A stretch of DNA of 35,485 nt. It comes from Chromatiaceae bacterium (GTDB taxonomy: Bacteria; Pseudomonadota; Gammaproteobacteria; Chromatiales; Chromatiaceae). The notes under the pieces were generated by a model. It worked only from the letters and a program-made list of their open reading frames with translations. It ran no database searches and was not told where the DNA came from. The first letter of the stretch is position 1; every line of letters starts with the position of its first letter. A program made the translations under genes and the position numbers. The stretch is from the NCBI GenBank assembly GCA_028277465.1, contig JANQGF010000243.1, forward strand, positions 1-35,485, written 5' to 3'. Shown here piece by piece: positions 1 to 35,485 of this stretch.

Positions 1-22
1 CCCCGTCTTCCCGAATAGCTGA

Positions 23-58
23 CTTAGTAATGATTCAGAAACAACCTACACACCGTAG
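23..58. repeat. 36-bp sequence cttagtaatgattcagaaacaacctacacaccgtag, copy 1 of a perfect direct repeat (second copy at 35327-35362)
   Basis: Exact 36/36 match by eye between 23-58 and 35327-35362. Flanking sequence on both sides differs between the copies. Confidence 0.9.
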
Positions 59-93
59 GGCGGCTCAAGTTGCACCACTTGTTTCTGAATCGT
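40..93. repeat. 13-bp inverted repeat gattcagaaacaa / ttgtttctgaatc enclosing a 28-nt loop (hairpin partly overlapping the 36-bp repeat)
   Basis: Positions 33-45 gattcagaaacaa and 81-93 ttgtttctgaatc are perfect reverse complements. Confidence 0.8.
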
Positions 94-237
94 TCCTTAG
101 AGAAGGGCTGACCTCTGCGGCGACGCCGGTGCGGGGCAGGATGCCCCGTTTTCTTCAAGCGTAGGCATCGCGCACCCTCCACGCGCCAGGATTCATTCTC
201 CGGGGTGCCGCAACCACTGCATGACCGGCAGCCGCGA

Positions 238-837
238 TCACCCTCGGCCCGGGCCGGTCACCGAATCGCGCAGCGCGCGTGCAGTCGCCAGCAGAACCGC
301 TCGCTGCGGGGCGGGAAGCTCCGAGTAGATCATCATCAGCTCGCGCATCTCTTCCGGAAAGGACAAGAAGAGCGGGTCGTGCTCGACATGCTGCTCGTCG
401 AACCAACCAACGGCTGCACCGAGCAGCTGTTCCAGCCGACCCGAGAGCTCGTCCGAGATCGGCAAGAATGGATTGTCCAGATGCTCACGCAGACGTTTGC
501 GCGAGATCCGCAGGCGCTTGACCGTTCGATCCAGCCGCTCCGTGTCCTGCTCGATACCGGCCATGGCGTGGACCAGGTTCTGGTGTCGCACCGCCTGCTG
601 ATCTCGCTCGTTGGGGCGGATCGGACCTTGTCCGAACATCAGCCAGCAAGCGGAGACGCCCGTGGCCGCGGCGATCAAGAGCATATCGTCGGCCCCCGGT
701 GTCGAGATGCCGGCCTCGTAATTTCCGAGCCGGGAGGGTTTCCAGCCGGGGATGCGCTCGAGCAGGCTGGCCTGGGTGGGTAGATCGGCCATCTTGCGGG
801 CGAGCTTGATACGGCCGGGGATGGTGGTCGCTTGCAT
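238..837 (-). CDS. XRE-family helix-turn-helix transcriptional regulator (199 aa) with an uncharacterised C-terminal domain
   Basis: The N-terminus IKLARKMADLPTQASLLERIPGWKPSRLGNYEAGISTPGADDMLLIAAATGVSACWLMFG is a Cro/C1-type HTH. ATG at 835-837. Divergent from the AT-rich promoter region 840-900. Confidence 0.75.
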   Translation of the reverse strand: MQATTIPGRIKLARKMADLPTQASLLERIPGWKPSRLGNYEAGISTPGADDMLLIAAATGVSACWLMFGQGPIRPNERDQQAVRHQNLVHAMAGIEQDTERLDRTVKRLRISRKRLREHLDNPFLPISDELSGRLEQLLGAAVGWFDEQHVEHDPLFLSFPEEMRELMMIYSELPAPQRAVLLATARALRDSVTGPGRG

Positions 838-869
838 TTGGCCAGTTTACAAGAATCTTGAAAATTTTG

Positions 870-897
870 TTGACATGCTTGTTCGATCGGCTAGACT
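870..897 (+). promoter_or_regulatory. Sigma70-like promoter (TTGACA, 16-nt spacer, TAGACT) in an AT-rich divergent region
   Basis: TTGACA at 870-875 and TAGACT at 892-897. This is the only AT-rich stretch in the area. It faces the terminator at 1145-1179. Confidence 0.4.
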
Positions 898-1144
898 TGT
901 CCGTCATCAAGGCAAGCGTGATCGAAGTCGATCCGGCGCTCGATGAGACTTCGATTCTCGGCTGGTTCTCTCCGGCCACCGATTCTGAGGATTCAGGCTC
1001 CATGACATCCAATGACCAGATCAGGCAACGAGCGCTCTCAACCGGTTTCCGGTATGGGAGGGACCATGCCGTCACTCTGAGCTGAGCCTGGACTGAGCGC
1101 GATCTCGGGAGGCCCAGCGCAAGGGCCTCCTGTCAGGACTCCGA

Positions 1145-1179
1145 CCCTGACCGGGAGCGACCCGGTCAGGGTTTTTTTT
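1145..1179 (+). terminator. Rho-independent terminator
   Basis: Stem ccctgaccggg / cccggtcaggg (11 bp, loop agcga) followed by TTTTTTTT. Confidence 0.8.
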
Positions 1180-1321
1180 GCCTGGCGGTGTGGCACCGCC
1201 CAAGGTCTTCGCGGAAGGCGTCGCGTGGTCAGCGCACGGGGTTCTGTATGCCCCCGCGGCAGGCTGGCGCACCCCCAGGGTGTCCGCTTCGTCTGTACCG
1301 ACTGCCTGGCGTCCGTGAAGT

Positions 1322-1398
1322 GACAACGTAGCTCATTTGGGTAGAGCAGCTGGTTGATAACCAGTGGGTAGCGGGTTCGAATCCCGCCGCTGTCTCCA
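1322..1398 (+). tRNA. tRNA-Ile (anticodon GAU), 77 nt with encoded CCA
   Basis: Manual cloverleaf fold. Acceptor gacaacg/cgctgtc has one A-C mismatch. D arm is gctc-atttgggta-gagc. Anticodon arm is gctgg-ttGATaa-ccagt, with U33 and A37. T arm is gcggg-ttcgaat-cccgc. Discriminator t, then cca. Confidence 0.75.
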
Positions 1399-1713
1399 TT
1401 GGCGACCAAGGGTTGCCCTTGGATTGGGCTTGAACCCCAATCCTCAACCAAGAGGCGAGCCCCAGCCACCGGACAGGGGGACCTCCGCCCCAGGGCGGGC
1501 CGGCAGGGAGGCCGAGATGGCAGCGTCGCCGTGATCTTGCGCGGCGGGCAAAGGTCGGGCCAGCTCCGCAGGGTATCAGGCTCCGGATGCAGGAGTGCAT
1601 CAGAGTGGATCGGGAGGATCCCGGACCGAGCCGGCGGAGTCCGCCCGGCAGACGCCCGTCGCCCATCGCGGCGGCGCGGGGCGAGCCCTTCTTTCAGCAC
1701 CATGACAGAGAGG

Positions 1714-1876
1714 TAAGGCGATTGCCGGAGACTCTCATACCAGATGGCGCCGGATTGACGGCTGCCTTCAAGGAGCGCCGGCAGGATCATAGCCGGGTTA
1801 TGTGACTGCTGGCGCGACACAGAAGGCAGGCGTCAAGACCAGCCAGGTGGTATGAGAGTCGACAGAAATCGCCTAA
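1714..1876 (-). repeat. Copy 1 (minus orientation) of a 163-bp structured repeat element with a long terminal inverted stem and internal hairpins. Candidate ncRNA or MITE.
   Basis: About 90% identical to 28081-28243 when reverse-complemented. Terminal pairing ggcgatt...gactctcatacca with tggtatgagagtc...aatcgcc. Internal hairpin ctgcc-ggcgctccttgaa-ggcag. Confidence 0.8.
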
Positions 1877-1959
1877 CTCTCGATGTCGACCGACCGTCCG
1901 AGGCGTGAGCCACTCGGGCTCGGGCGCCTCGGTACCCGCGAGGACACAGGAGAAGCAGC

Positions 1960-3177
1960 ATGAACATCATGGGATACAAGCGACAGGTCGTGGCCCAGCA
2001 CCAGCGTGCACTGGTGCTGAAGAACGGTGTGCTGGTCGAGATTCTGGGCCCGGGTGTCTACCACTGGCTGGATCTCACGGGCGCCGTCGAGATTCAGGTC
2101 TCGGATCTGACCAATCCGGAGCTGGTCCATCCGCACGCTGAGGTCTTGCGGAAGGAGTCCAGCCGGCTCTGGGACGCCTGGATCCAGACCATCGAGACCG
2201 GCGAGCGCGAGGCCGGGCTGGTTCGCTTCGATGGTCGTCTCGCTCACCTGCTGCCGCCCCTGAGCCGCCGCTTCTATTGGAAGGGACCCGTGCAGGTCGA
2301 TCTTGAGCGGATCGATCTGAGCCAGGACCCCGCGATCGAGCCGGCACTGCTGGAGGCCTTGCGCCAGACGCGTCATGCGCGGCCCTTCACCCAGGTCTCG
2401 GCTGGTTCACGGGAGAAGGCACGGGCCCTGGGCAGGGAGCTGGCGGGTATCGACTTCCTCGACAATGTCCTGGAGGAAGAGGTGGCGGATCACCAGCTGG
2501 GACTGCTGGTCATGGATGGTCGGTTGGTCCGGACCCTGGAGCCCGGCGTGCACGCCTTCTGGAACTTCGCCCGCAATCTGCAGGTGGAAGTGACGGACCT
2601 GCGACTGCAGGAGCTGGAGGTCCAGGGCCAGGAGATCCTGACCAGGGACAAGGTCAGCCTGCGGATCAATCTGACCGCCCACTATCGGGTGGTCGACCCG
2701 GTCAAGGTCCGGGCGATGTTGCCCCGTCCCAAGGACTACCTCTATCGCGAGCTACAGTTCAGTCTGCGCCAAGGAGTCGGCGACCGCACCCTGGACGAGC
2801 TGTTGAACGAGAAGGGGACACTGGAGCAGGGCATGCAGGAGCGCGTGCGAGCACGGGCCGAGGCCTATGGGATCCTGGTCGAGGAGCTGGGGATCAAGGA
2901 TGTCATCCTTCCGGGCGACATGAAGCAGATCCTCAATCAGGTGGTCGAGGCGGAGAAGGCGGCGCAAGCCAACCTGATCCGTCGCCGCGAGGAAACGGCG
3001 GCCACCCGGTCGTTGCTCAACACGGCCAAGCTGATGGAACAGAACCCGATCCTGCTGCGGTTGAAGGAGCTGGAGACCCTGGAGGGCGTCACGGATCGGG
3101 TTGGTAGCCTGACCCTCTTCGGCGGCATGGAGTCCCTGCTCCAAGGATTGGTGAGGATCGAGGCGCCGAAGGGTTGA
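1960..3177 (+). CDS. SPFH/band-7 (stomatin/prohibitin-like, slipin-type) domain protein, 405 aa
   Basis: The C-terminal half ...TRDKVSLRINLTAHYRVVDPVKV...IKDVILPGDMKQILNQVVEAEKAAQANLIRRREETAATRS... is SPFH-like. The N-terminal half has two related beta-rich repeats. RBS aggag 6 nt upstream. Confidence 0.7.
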   Translation: MNIMGYKRQVVAQHQRALVLKNGVLVEILGPGVYHWLDLTGAVEIQVSDLTNPELVHPHAEVLRKESSRLWDAWIQTIETGEREAGLVRFDGRLAHLLPPLSRRFYWKGPVQVDLERIDLSQDPAIEPALLEALRQTRHARPFTQVSAGSREKARALGRELAGIDFLDNVLEEEVADHQLGLLVMDGRLVRTLEPGVHAFWNFARNLQVEVTDLRLQELEVQGQEILTRDKVSLRINLTAHYRVVDPVKVRAMLPRPKDYLYRELQFSLRQGVGDRTLDELLNEKGTLEQGMQERVRARAEAYGILVEELGIKDVILPGDMKQILNQVVEAEKAAQANLIRRREETAATRSLLNTAKLMEQNPILLRLKELETLEGVTDRVGSLTLFGGMESLLQGLVRIEAPKG

Positions 3178-4657: not shown

Positions 4658-5641
4658 ATGGCCGCGTATCGCCGCTTTCTTGCACCCCTGCTGTTGGCCG
4701 GGCTCACATTGGCGCCCGCCTCCCGGGCGGCGGTCGACCAAGTGATCGTCTTCGGTCACATCCTGGCCGAGTCGACGGCCCACCATCGTCAGCTGATCTG
4801 GGCGAGCCAGGAACTCGCCCGTCGCTCCGGTGCGCGCGTCCAGCTCACGGTCTACCCGGCGGGACAGATCGGAAGCACCGATGCACAGGTCATCGAGGGC
4901 TTCCACACCGGCACCGCCGACATGGCCTATCTGAGCTTCGGCCACCTGCTCGAGGTCTTCCCGCCTCTGGCGATTGGCGCCGGCCCCTTCGTCTTTCGCG
5001 ACTTCGAGCATTGGCAAGGCTTCGCTGACAGCGCCATCTATCACGAGCTGGTCACCGAGATGGAGAAGGAGCTGGATCTGAAGGCGTTTGGACTCGCCTA
5101 TTACGGCGCGCGCCACGTGACGACTCGCACCCCCTTGAGCGGCCCCGAGGCGCTGCGCGATCTGGTGATCCGGGTGCCCAACATCCCGACCATGATCCTG
5201 ACCTTCCGCGCGCTCGGTGCCGAGCCGGTCCCCTTGCCTTTCAAGGAGACCCATCAGGCGCTACGCGAGCGTATCGTCGACGCCCAGGAGAACCCGCTAC
5301 CGGCGATCTTGGCAATGCGCTTCTACGAGGTGACACCGGTCGTCAATCAGACCGCGCACATCTTGGACGCGCAGATCATCGTCATGGATGGTGAACGTTG
5401 GCGTTCGCTGGACTCAGGTGCCCAGCAGCTCCTCGAGTCCGTGCTCGCCGAGGCGGCACGCCGGGTCACGCGGGATGTCCGCGCCGAGGAGCTCAGCCTG
5501 CCCGAGAGGCTGCGAGCCCTCGGGGTCAGCTTCAATCCGATCGATCGCGAGCCGCTCATCCGCGCCATCGTGCCGCTTCACCGCAGCGCCTACTTCCCTT
5601 GGGGCGGCGAGCTCTACGACCGTATCCAGGCCTTACGGTAG
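4658..5641 (+). CDS. TRAP-transporter solute-binding protein (DctP family), orphan with no DctQ/DctM nearby
   Basis: Signal peptide MAAYRRFLAPLLLAGLTLAPASRA. DctP-like fold motifs. RBS aagagga. No membrane TRAP subunits are in the window. Confidence 0.7.
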   Translation: MAAYRRFLAPLLLAGLTLAPASRAAVDQVIVFGHILAESTAHHRQLIWASQELARRSGARVQLTVYPAGQIGSTDAQVIEGFHTGTADMAYLSFGHLLEVFPPLAIGAGPFVFRDFEHWQGFADSAIYHELVTEMEKELDLKAFGLAYYGARHVTTRTPLSGPEALRDLVIRVPNIPTMILTFRALGAEPVPLPFKETHQALRERIVDAQENPLPAILAMRFYEVTPVVNQTAHILDAQIIVMDGERWRSLDSGAQQLLESVLAEAARRVTRDVRAEELSLPERLRALGVSFNPIDREPLIRAIVPLHRSAYFPWGGELYDRIQALR

Positions 5642-12468: not shown

Positions 12469-12821
12469 AAGTTCTGTGGATAAGTCTGGGGATAGGCTTT
12501 GGAGATCGCTCGCCAGGCCACGCCACTGTCACAATTCCGTCCGCTTGGCAAAGATCTGACCAGTTACTCAATAATATTATTTTTCAATGTGTTGAAGGAT
12601 TTCGTTCGATAGCCACTCAAGAGGGTCTTGACAAATCTGCCGCAACCGGGATGTCCAATCGGGTCTGTGAATGAACAAGCCCTTCGGGCGGGAACAGGCG
12701 TCCGTTGGGCCCGCAGGCCGAGACCCGCCGGGCGCGTGAGCGCGAGTCGCAACCCCGGGTCGAGAGGCCCACTTCAACGCGCACTCCTTCACGGTTTGCG
12801 CGAGTGAGTCAAGCGAGTATC

Positions 12822-13457
12822 ATGCTCGCAAATTCCGAGCCGTATCCAACTATGTTGCCACTGAATCAACAGGTACTGCGAACGGATTTGGCGGGTATGC
12901 CCCTGGAATGGGTCAACTACCGCGTCGCGGCCCGACTCTATTTCTTGGGTCAGGTCGCATACTCCTGCGGGGACCTGCTCTTCCTGCTGCGCGGCGGGAT
13001 CAATGCCCTCACCCGGGTCCAGAGCCAGCTCCAGATCCACTCCATCATCGCGACCTACGGCATTCATCACGCCCTGAACAAGCTTCAGGAAGACTATGTG
13101 CCGCCGCTGTCGAATCGCACCCTCTTTCAGCGCGACGACCATATCTGCATGTACTGTGGGCAGCGTTTCTCGCCGCGTCATCTCTCGCGAGACCATGTTC
13201 GCCCCTCCAGCAAAGGTGGTCAGGACCAGTGGAACAATGTGGTCACGGCTTGCGTGCGCTGTAACAACCACAAGGCCGGGCGCTCGCCCGAAGATGCGGG
13301 CATGGAGCTGCTGGCCGTCCCTTTCACACCGACCCATGCCGAGTACATCTATTTGATGGGCCGTAATGTCCTGGCAGATCAAATGCAGTTCCTGCGCGCC
13401 CACTTTCCCCGAACCAGCCCATTGCATCGGAGGCTCGATCGAGGAAGGCCCGTATGA
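12822..13457 (+). CDS. HNH endonuclease family protein (211 aa)
   Basis: HNH motif CMYCGQRFSPRHLSRDHVRPSSKGGQDQWNNVVTACVRCNNHKAGR. The ATGA stop/start overlaps the next gene. Confidence 0.7.
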   Translation: MLANSEPYPTMLPLNQQVLRTDLAGMPLEWVNYRVAARLYFLGQVAYSCGDLLFLLRGGINALTRVQSQLQIHSIIATYGIHHALNKLQEDYVPPLSNRTLFQRDDHICMYCGQRFSPRHLSRDHVRPSSKGGQDQWNNVVTACVRCNNHKAGRSPEDAGMELLAVPFTPTHAEYIYLMGRNVLADQMQFLRAHFPRTSPLHRRLDRGRPV

Positions 13458-28049: not shown

Positions 28050-28080
28050 TGCAACCTCCTGATGTGTGTTGGCATCGGTC

Positions 28081-28243
28081 TTAGGCGATTTCTGTCAATT
28101 CTCATCCCACCTGGCTTGTCTTGACGCCCGCCTTCTGCGTCGCGCCAGCAGTCACATCGCGCGGCGATGCTCCTGCCGGCGCTCCTTGAAGGCAGACGCC
28201 AATCCGGCGCCATCTGGCATGAGAATTTCCGGCAATCGCCTTA
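28081..28243 (+). repeat. Copy 2 (plus orientation) of the 163-bp structured repeat element
   Basis: About 90% identical to the reverse complement of 1714-1876. Terminal stem ggcgatttctgtcaattctcat... pairs with ...atgagaatttccggcaatcgcc. Same internal hairpin ctgcc-ggcgctccttgaa-ggcag. Confidence 0.8.
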
Positions 28244-34514: not shown

Positions 34515-35075
34515 ATGAAAAGACTCGGCCCTTTGTCAACGATCGTCGCATTGCTTCTGCTCCATCCCTGGGCTGTTGCGGATGACGTCGAGGACGACGC
34601 TCTCAGGAACGTCAAGTACGAGTACGCGGCGAAGTTCGTCTGTGGAGATGATCCCCAACCAGCCTATGTGCGCGTGGTTCCGGGCTTCTATGCCACCGCG
34701 ATCAACATCCATAATCCCAATAGTCGACGGACCCAGCTGCGATCGAAGGTCGCGCTGACGTTTCCGCCCGCCGAAAACGAGCCCGGGGAGATCTCCGACT
34801 TCCTGGAGCACAAGCTCGCTTCTGACCAAGCCTTGGAGATCGACTGCGAGGAGATCTTCGGCACCTCCCAGAGCGACTCCGCCTATTTCCCCGGGAGGCG
34901 ACCGGGTCTCGGTTTTCCAAGCTACATCAAGGGCTTCGTCATTATTCAGAGTACACGAAGCCTCGACGTAACCGGTGTCTATACCGTCGCGGAGGGCACC
35001 GCCGGCACGAACCTGACGCCCCGTGGGATCGATGTCGAGCAGATCCGCGAACGGTTGGTCAAATCCAAGAAGTAG
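34515..35075 (+). CDS. Secreted hypothetical protein (186 aa) with local lower GC
   Basis: Strong RBS ctggaggaacgATG. Signal peptide MKRLGPLSTIVALLLLHPWAVA. No recognisable domain. Two Cys residues in the mature part. Confidence 0.6.
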   Translation: MKRLGPLSTIVALLLLHPWAVADDVEDDALRNVKYEYAAKFVCGDDPQPAYVRVVPGFYATAINIHNPNSRRTQLRSKVALTFPPAENEPGEISDFLEHKLASDQALEIDCEEIFGTSQSDSAYFPGRRPGLGFPSYIKGFVIIQSTRSLDVTGVYTVAEGTAGTNLTPRGIDVEQIRERLVKSKK

Positions 35076-35326
35076 AGGCACGCAGGAGATGCCGATGTCA
35101 TGAGCGCGATCTGTGACCGGTCCGCTCACGTTTTGGCGATCGGCATCCCGCCCTCTCACCTAGGTTGATCTCCAGAAAACATCCTACCCGTCGGTTGGGG
35201 TGAGGAACGAACCCCAACGCGGCCTGTTGGGCTTCGCTCTCGCTCGGCCCACAACCTACAACCGGTCGATATCTTGGGTAAATTCTTTCCAGGGAATCGC
35301 CTAGGTCCAAAATCCTGGTCGAGACC

Positions 35327-35362
35327 CTTAGTAATGATTCAGAAACAACCTACACACCGTAG
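35327..35362. repeat. Copy 2 of the 36-bp perfect direct repeat (see 23-58), embedded in a hairpin-rich non-coding region 35190-35485
   Basis: Exact match to 23-58. Adjacent hairpins ttgggg-tgaggaacgaa-ccccaa, gttgggc-ttcgctctcgctcg-gcccac, ttgggca-aagcgaagcg-tgcccaa and gctag-tcg-gctagc. Partial internal duplication caacctaca(a/c)accg at 35250 and 35347. Confidence 0.85.
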
Positions 35363-35485
35363 TTGGGCAAAGCGAAGCGTGCCCAACGTGTGACCGGCAT
35401 GCTAGTCGGCTAGCTGGTGCAAGTCCAGCCATGGCCCTTGGGAGAAGGGAACATGTAGGCGAAGGCAAGGGTGCCCGAAGAAACT

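Follow-up and report, generated by a model that had tools for sequence, protein, structure and literature searches.

The locus

The window analyzed here, which is the whole 35,485-bp stretch of DNA from a Chromatiaceae bacterium, encodes in its interior a Band-7 protein, RtcB, a GGDEF protein, ArgS, PriA, an HNH protein, a fructosamine kinase, a chemoreceptor, a PilZ-GGDEF-EAL protein, an RND efflux pair, a porin, a glutaminase, a transporter, and a DUF1028 protein. Neither an integrase, an excisionase, or a transposase nor any phage or conjugation gene was found within this 35-kb interior. Near the left end lie a tRNA-Ile(GAT) gene (1322-1398, + strand) and a gene for an HTH_3/XRE-like regulator (238-837, - strand), with no integrase accompanying them; a tRNA together with an HTH/XRE-like regulator is a combination often found at island junctions. 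A stand-alone HNH endonuclease ORF of 250 aa (12705-13457, + strand) is located between priA and the fructosamine kinase gene. The last ORF stops at 35075, and from there a noncoding stretch of at least 410 bp runs to the window end.

The two ends of the window carry the same 36-mer, CTTAGTAATGATTCAGAAACAACCTACACACCGTAG, at 23-58 (copy 1) and 35327-35362 (copy 2), both on the + strand and with an identity of 36/36. The repeat is AT-rich, in a window with a GC content of 65.5%. When up to three mismatches are allowed, the window holds two matches to the 36-mer versus an expected 0.00 (100 dinucleotide-preserving shuffles), so that the pair of perfect direct repeats 35.3 kb apart reported in the initial annotation stands far beyond what shuffled sequence yields. 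A 13-nt core, GATTCAGAAACAA, occurs at 32-44 (+), 79-91 (-), and 35336-35348 (+), that is, three times versus 0.22 expected; copy 1 thus has two inverted core arms, and copy 2 has one within the window. The 13-bp inverted-repeat hairpin previously noted at copy 1 was recovered as such: its arms at 32-44 and 79-91 are complementary at 13/13 positions, the pairing extends to 22 nt at 86%, and the RNA fold of 23-104 reaches -31 kcal/mol (z = -5.8). Just to the right of copy 1, at 131-158 (+), is an intrinsic-terminator-like hairpin followed by a T run (GCGGGGCAGGATGCCCCGTTTTCTTC). This suggests that the terminator belongs to a + strand gene located upstream, outside the window, with copy 1 situated in between.

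We also considered whether the pair could be an artifact of a circular contig or of terminal overlap. This was rejected, as positions 1-22 do not match 35305-35326 and the two sequences also diverge after the 36-mer.

A dispersed family of small elements

A scan with the central 24-mer of the element, across a collection that holds one genome per species for 185,579 species and of which the window's own genome is not a member, returned six more copies (L004 to L009) on six contigs with six different flanks. The family therefore stands at eight sites with different flanks, two in the window and six on contigs of metagenome-derived genomes (MAGs) from four bins. All six contigs are MAGs of one project (isolate names PL23a, PL23b, and PL25a), and the bins are labeled Chromatiaceae (three contigs), Thiohalocapsa, Rhodospira, and Phycisphaeraceae. 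The initial annotation had preferred a dispersed structured repeat family and had named confinement of the repeat to the two window sites, together with an identical arrangement of the intervening 35 kb in relatives that lack it, as the finding that would count against it; the six further loci, five of which carry the match at the very end of their contig, speak for its preference. MAG bin labels are a weak guide to host range, since short repeat-ended contigs are easily misbinned. The tetranucleotide correlation between the MAG contigs and the window is 0.89 to 0.95, slightly below that of same-sized pieces of the window, and this comparison gives no verdict on misbinning. The near-identical copies in bins of different classes and phyla (Chromatiaceae, Rhodospira, and Phycisphaeraceae) could instead, though with a low probability, reflect recent cross-lineage transfer.

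The full element measures 96 to 98 bp and is laid out, from left to right, as TAATGATTCAGAAACAA, CCTACACACCGTAG, GTTGGGCAAAGCGGAGCGTGCCCAAC, AAGGGCGGCTCAAGTTGCACCAC, and TTGTTTCTGAATCGTTC(C). Its left terminal inverted repeat, TAATGATTCAGAAACAA, is AT-rich and 17 nt long and agrees with the opposite end, GAACGATTCAGAAACAA, at 15/17 positions in register and at 13/13 positions of the core. Inside are a short CCTAC..GTAGG palindrome and a GC-rich inner hairpin (GTTGGGC-N10-GCCCAAC) that has a GTAG prefix in most copies, and between this hairpin and the right terminal repeat, TTGTTTCTGAATCGTTC, lies a unique segment, AAGGGCGGCTCAAGTTGCACCAC. The consensus folds as one long hairpin (-47.3 kcal/mol, z = -7.5). 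When used as an nhmmer query, the consensus scores E = 1e-24 to 1e-27 at the MAG loci and 3e-12 and 4e-11 at the window copies, with no match in the window beyond these two.

Copy 1 is a 68-bp short form without the inner hairpin (28-95, + strand), delimited on the basis of the nhmmer match (E = 3e-12), the inverted arms, and the fold. Its terminal inverted repeats occupy 28-44 (TAATGATTCAGAAACAA) and 79-95 (TTGTTTCTGAATCGTTC), and it is bordered on the left by CTTAG at 23-27 (+), a putative target-site duplication identical to the CTTAG on the right at 96-100 (+). Of copy 2, only the left part is present, at 35332-35387 (+; E = 4e-11, model positions 1 to 62): the left terminal repeat, CCTACACACCGTAG, and the inner hairpin, TTGGGCAAAGCGAAGCGTGCCCAA(C), at 35363-35387 (+). 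The target pentamer on its left, at 35327-35331 (+), is again CTTAG, the same as that of copy 1 by chance; the base immediately upstream is A at copy 1 and C at copy 2.

This anatomy accounts for the 36 identical bases, of which 5 are the CTTAG target and 31 the beginning of the element. Since both copies have the same pentamer, the match sets in 5 bp ahead of the element, and it breaks off after 36 bp because copy 1 is without the inner hairpin: after ...CCGTAG, copy 1 runs straight into GGCGGCTCAAG..., with the 28- to 29-bp hairpin missing. Past the hairpin, CCCAAC is followed by AAGGGCGGCTCAAG... or AAGGGCGG in the other, intact copies and by GTGTG in window copy 2. The two flanks had been called unrelated. 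They do differ upstream, but downstream the description holds only in part, because copy 1 continues into the right half of the same element and copy 2 into the inner hairpin and then a group II intron. In the full form, the inner hairpin is bordered by AGG on both sides, and its left junction is variable, being 4 bp shorter in L008 and 1 bp shorter in window copy 2. From these AGG borders and variable left junctions, we infer slippage deletions at the hairpin as opposed to separate insertions. The absence of the hairpin from copy 1 is thus probably a slippage deletion between the flanking AGG repeats.

Neither the 68-bp short form nor the 96- to 98-bp form has an ORF of its own or any Pfam or Rfam content. 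No Rfam family matched the element, whether at the gathering threshold over the whole window or at permissive E values over both window ends and a full copy; the Rfam searches returned tRNA-Ile, a weak partial group II match, and chance matches (a miRNA, a lncRNA, and a twister-sister fragment). The left 22-mer of the element had 0 matches in the JGI metagenomes, IMG/VR viral contigs had 0 matches to the element, and blastn of the whole element against PLSDB plasmids gave no match. An arm-gap-arm pattern scan of the JGI metagenomes gave one match, at 7187-7250 of L011 (Ga0315285_10004518). It has the same 13-nt arms (GATTCAGAAACAA and TTGTTTCTGAATC) but an unrelated loop and unrelated flanks; we judge this AT-rich hairpin, on a contig with 35% GC, to be a chance palindrome match and not a relative.

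Flanking duplications and target preference

Both flanks are visible in three copies only, and in these, the bordering pentamers are direct repeats: CTTAG/CTTAG at window copy 1, CCAGG/CCAGG at L008, and ATTAG/CTTAG at L009. Reading the flanks as direct repeats fits 14/15 positions, versus 11/15 if they are read as an extension of the inverted repeats. The single visible flanks are CTTAG, ACAAG, CTAAG, and CCAAG (twice). Together, the sites point to a strongly preferred near-palindromic target with the consensus C-Y-W-R-G. With the terminal repeats aligned in register, the duplication measures 5 bp; it may also be 3 to 4 bp long, as there is almost no variation at the outer C and G. By our own count over the eight sites, the odds of seeing three matching 4-mers under a "conserved flank motif" are about 0.03.

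At L009, the element sits exactly between the stops of two convergent genes, encoding the C terminus of an HATPase_c histidine kinase and an AAA_22 ATPase, and both stop codons, TAG and TAA, fall inside the duplicated CTAA/TTAG. This arrangement indicates that one original 4- to 5-bp overlap of the two stops was duplicated and that both genes were left intact. More generally, since the target contains TAG/TAA, insertions can fall at or between stop codons without damage to the genes. The Logan contigs with neighboring genes (L001 to L003) yielded no empty-site allele; L002, the sole contig from a related strain, differs over all of window positions 1-187 and offers no clean empty site there.

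Contig ends and a second repeat family

Independent Logan assemblies of three runs cover the window end genes at 100% protein identity. One contig (L003) matches window positions 74-1760 at 100% and ends at 74, inside copy 1; another (L001) ends at 35205, inside the hairpin cluster beside copy 2. The earlier suggestion that sequence of this kind breaks assemblies is borne out by these two breaks, along with the five of six MAG contigs described above. Independent assembly support ends at 35205, and none was found for positions 35206-35485.

The third contig (L002, from SRR20820735) is 99.87% identical to window positions 188-1766 and wholly different to the left of 188. Its positions 1580-2000, opposite window positions 1-187, hold a sigma-70 family gene and a spacer with a CCTAC...GTAGG palindrome and no copy of the element. 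The breakpoint falls at ...AGG|ATTCATT, about 90 bp from the element.

L002 and L003 both end at about 1760 to 1766, inside another dispersed repeat, which forms a second family (about 165 bp; TAAGGCGATTGCCGG...GACAGAAATCGCCTAA) and has inverted ends of its own. The window carries two copies, at 1716-1880 (+) and 28077-28243 (-), which are 88% alike and in opposite orientation, and the family also occurs at the end of L005 (a Chromatiaceae MAG contig), at both ends of L002, and at the end of L003. This second family is probably another family of the type that we propose below for the 36-mer.

A group II intron in copy 2

From 35388 to the window end at 35485 (+), copy 2 is interrupted directly 3' of its inner hairpin by a group II intron (GTGTGACCGGCATGC...), which runs off the window after its first 98 nt. 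The sequence from 35388 reads GTGTGACCGGCATGCTAGTCGGCTAGCTGGTGCAAGTCCAGCC..., with GTGTG at the intron start. An Rfam search of this stretch gave RF02003 (group-II-D1D4-4) at 13 bits, a partial match at the window end that is below the family threshold. A stronger indication came from blastn against plasmids, which aligned 96 nt of the stretch, at 85% identity, with a plasmid of Methylomonas sp. AM2-LC (CP157006.1), matching it in two places. In the plasmid, the homologous 96 nt open a complete intron (locus L010, with GTGTG at position 3000) that scores 85.7 bits with RF02001 and 47.1 bits with RF00029 (domains V and VI, ending near 5027) and that encodes a 436-aa protein with RVT_1 and GIIM domains, for which Pfam reports no HNH domain. 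The alignment of the window with this homologue includes a compensatory change, from CCG/CGG to CTG/CAG. The 5' GUGYG and the domain I structure are thus present in the 98 nt that the window covers, while domains V and VI and the reverse transcriptase-maturase ORF are read from the L010 homologue. We conclude that a group II intron was retro-inserted into copy 2 and that 35388-35485 represents its 5' end; the intron probably belongs to class C (IIC). Because the intron cuts copy 2, the right half of the element must lie beyond the window. The covered length of 98 nt equals k - 1 for the "k99" assemblies that appear in the names of the related MAG contigs, a coincidence-level agreement that would fit a contig stopping at a multicopy intron.

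Class C introns choose their site by a stem-loop and a 3- to 4-nt IBS1. Here, the splice site lies at the stem foot (0 to 1 nt), so that the IBS1 of the window intron would overlap the 3' strand of the stem. Such a location is in keeping with published observations that IIC introns are located after terminators or other inverted repeats (PMC1702495) and that mobile elements are frequent group II intron sites (PMC7306698).

The hairpin cluster beside copy 2

The noncoding stretch around copy 2 contains three TTGGG..CCCAA hairpins. Apart from the inner hairpin of copy 2, these are a REP-like TTGGGG..CCCCAA hairpin with the prefix GTCG (35195-35217) and a REP-like TTGGGC..GCCCACAA hairpin with the prefix GTAG on the other strand (35227-35256), and the stems at 35195-35256 fit the GTTGGG/CCCAAC pattern of the inner hairpin of the element. 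Local alignment over 35173-35259 finds the element core here twice, as degenerate partial copies in opposite orientation: a forward copy at 35173-35199 (CAGAAAACATCCTAC..CCGTCG and a GTTGGGG hairpin) and a reverse copy at 35225-35259 (a hairpin and CCTAC). Their alignment scores are 28 and 30, versus a mean of 16.7 (standard deviation, 2.3; maximum, 26) for shuffles. A hairpin-dense noncoding stretch with internal partial duplications, as the initial annotation described it, is therefore what surrounds copy 2.

We also tried an integron attC site as an explanation for GTTGGGC...GCCCAAC. The two heptamers match GTTRRRY and RYYYAAC, but in the wrong order, and a unit of 25 nt is far too short; this candidate was rejected.

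Proposed origin and alternative readings

In total, we posit that a single family of small noncoding, nonautonomous transposable elements (MITEs) has inserted twice in the window, at the sites marked by the 36-mer, a reading to which we assign a probability of roughly 0.78. MITEs range from roughly 50 to 500 bp and have no transposase gene, and the element is correspondingly small and without such a gene. The anatomy that defines MITEs is that of small, noncoding elements with terminal inverted repeats, target duplications, and dispersed copies (PMC3184786 and PMC10969869). The element has the terminal inverted repeats, and its target-site duplication is seen on three pairs, at a target that is preferred and near-palindromic. 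No autonomous insertion sequence with matching ends, and no transposase, was found in the window, in L001 to L009, or in the plasmid and viral collections, the collections having been scanned by exact words of at least 14 nt.

The mechanism that we envisage for the MITE is as follows. A DDE-type transposase encoded elsewhere in the genome would bind the terminal repeats and would either cut and paste or copy the element into a near-palindromic C-Y-W-R-G target, which would be duplicated upon insertion. Both window copies would have happened to land in CTTAG. Copy 1 would then have lost its inner hairpin, while copy 2 would have kept it and would later have been invaded by the group II intron, starting directly 3' of that hairpin. 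If so, the right half of copy 2 would be predicted to resume past the intron with AAGGGCGGCTCAAGTTGCACCACTTGTTTCTGAATCGTTC, followed by CTTAG.

Can a different origin explain the same sequences? One candidate is that these are REP/REPIN units, each a GTAG and a GC-rich hairpin, spread by a RAYT (an IS200/IS605-like tyrosine/HUH transposase), with the AT-rich arms forming the outer part of a REPIN-like hairpin. The GTAG prefix of the inner hairpin in most copies is consistent with this idea, as are the two further TTGGG..CCCAA hairpins beside copy 2, whose opposite orientation is like that of a REP doublet, and the behavior of the hairpin as a module, absent from copy 1 and differing at its left junction in L008 and window copy 2. 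However, the symmetry of the element is limited to the outer 17 nt and its interior is asymmetric, unlike that of a REPIN; its outer arms are rich in A and T instead of G and C; and a RAYT/Y1 transposase gene was not seen among the scanned ORFs of the window and the loci. The flanks, too, are direct repeats, and single-strand transposition of the IS200/IS605 type is not known to make any. Put differently, the GTAG/GTGG prefix with a GC-rich palindrome in inverted doublets is found for the inner module and for 35195-35256 only, and the lack of a target duplication and the associated RAYT that would be expected of REPs do not describe an element flanked as a whole by direct repeats. We consider this origin unlikely for the element and keep a REP/RAYT origin of the inner module as a minor rival, given the REP-like appearance of the GTAG-hairpin units; the inner module, taken by itself, may have come from a REP.

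Still less probable in our estimation is that the copies are structured small RNA genes or cis-regulatory hairpins, such as terminators, that have been kept by selection and not transposed. The fold is indeed of high stability (z = -5.8 for copy 1 and -7.5 for the consensus), copies lie downstream of genes, the L009 element has a position between convergent genes at which a terminator acting in both directions would be of use, and the minus strand gives a terminator-like score for the CCTAC..GTAGG mini-hairpin with TTGTTTCT after it. Yet the copies are near-identical at unrelated loci and have flanking duplications, which argues for recent copying and against conserved genes, and the variation among them is too little for a covariation test. 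The alternative of an ncRNA family, raised in the initial annotation, did not fare well either, as there is no Rfam match and no promoter-like site. A terminator or RNA-stability side effect may exist and would be an exaptation of the element, not an alternative origin.

The weakest reading, that the repeats are att-like recombination scars bounding a 35-kb integrated island, could call upon a perfect pair of direct repeats 35.3 kb apart, the nearness of the tRNA-Ile gene (1322-1398) and the HTH/XRE-like gene (238-837) to the left copy, and the different arrangement of the near-identical strain L002 to the left of 188, but it can in effect be ruled out, because the interior is made up of housekeeping genes (priA, argS, rtcB, chemotaxis, efflux, and transport) without an integrase, the sequence recurs at six further, unrelated sites, and copy 1 is self-contained, having a terminal repeat at each end and a flanking duplication that belongs to it alone; moreover, the repeat is neither in nor adjoining the tRNA, and L002 diverges about 90 bp away from the element and not at the 36-mer. 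An att-bounded island would be expected to have an integrase, accessory content, and repeats at its junctions only, none of which is the case here. Rejection of an island boundary in the initial annotation, which had cited the lack of an integrase or transposase, is thus upheld, and the complete copies with both flanks visible each have a short flanking duplication of their own.

Implications

Under the MITE reading, the fragmented assemblies of this purple-sulfur-type bacterium are explained by at least two MITE-like families and a multicopy intron, and the repeat pair should not be read as an island boundary. The reading also adds an undescribed MITE family, one with a target that contains a stop codon and with insertions that land harmlessly between genes. 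The intron at the foot of the inner hairpin of a MITE is a natural example of stem-loop targeting and of nested mobile elements. Neither principle, stem-loop targeting by group II introns or mobile-element nesting, is new; a functional coupling among the MITE, the REP-like hairpin, and the intron is a possible, and the sole, mildly novel angle. We speculate, as a rather unlikely extension of the data, that the locus represents a three-layer nested system in which a DDE-mobilized MITE carries a REP-like GTAG hairpin that is gained and lost and that serves as the landing pad for a class-C-like intron. If this were true, the number of safe homing sites that the chromosome offers to the intron would grow as the MITE spread.

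Comparison with known systems

Like Correia elements, which occur as short and long forms, the family includes a short variant with an internal deletion, namely, window copy 1. For a broader comparison, we used Correia (Neisseria), RUP (Streptococcus pneumoniae), ERIC/IRU (enterobacteria), Nezha (cyanobacteria), and MITEAba12, as described in PMC3184786, PMC10969869, and PMC2229807. The element is like these bacterial MITEs in being about 100 bp long and noncoding, in having terminal inverted repeats and short target duplications, and in having copies, here dispersed over eight sites, that are mostly intergenic and fold as a long hairpin. In contrast, it has no sequence similarity to any of them, its C-Y-W-R-G target is unlike the TA target of Correia and RUP, and, unlike the listed MITEs, it carries an inner REP-like GTAG hairpin. 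We regard it as an undescribed MITE-like family with a C-Y-W-R-G target.

With regard to a mobilizing partner, an IS5-type insertion sequence is what we take, from ISfinder family descriptions, to be a candidate. The likeness consists of a short duplicated target, with CTAA on one strand in 3/8 sites, and of one element end that starts with GGAA/GAAC, and it is a resemblance only. IS1380, IS701, and ISH3 make 4- to 5-bp duplications and fit equally well.

As for the intron, its first 15 nt are similar to those of the class IIC intron B.h.I1 (GTGTGCCAGGCATGC versus window GTGTGACCGGCATGC, based on primer sequences in PMC1702495), and it lies 3' of a stem-loop, as do the class C introns B.h.I1 and O.i.I1 (PMC1702495 and PMC4748821). 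The L010 homologue, with a reverse transcriptase and maturase and without a Pfam HNH domain, is likewise similar to class C. Two features set the window intron apart: its site has no T run, unlike class C terminator sites, and it splices at the foot of the stem, whereas B.h.I1 sites are 3 to 11 nt downstream.
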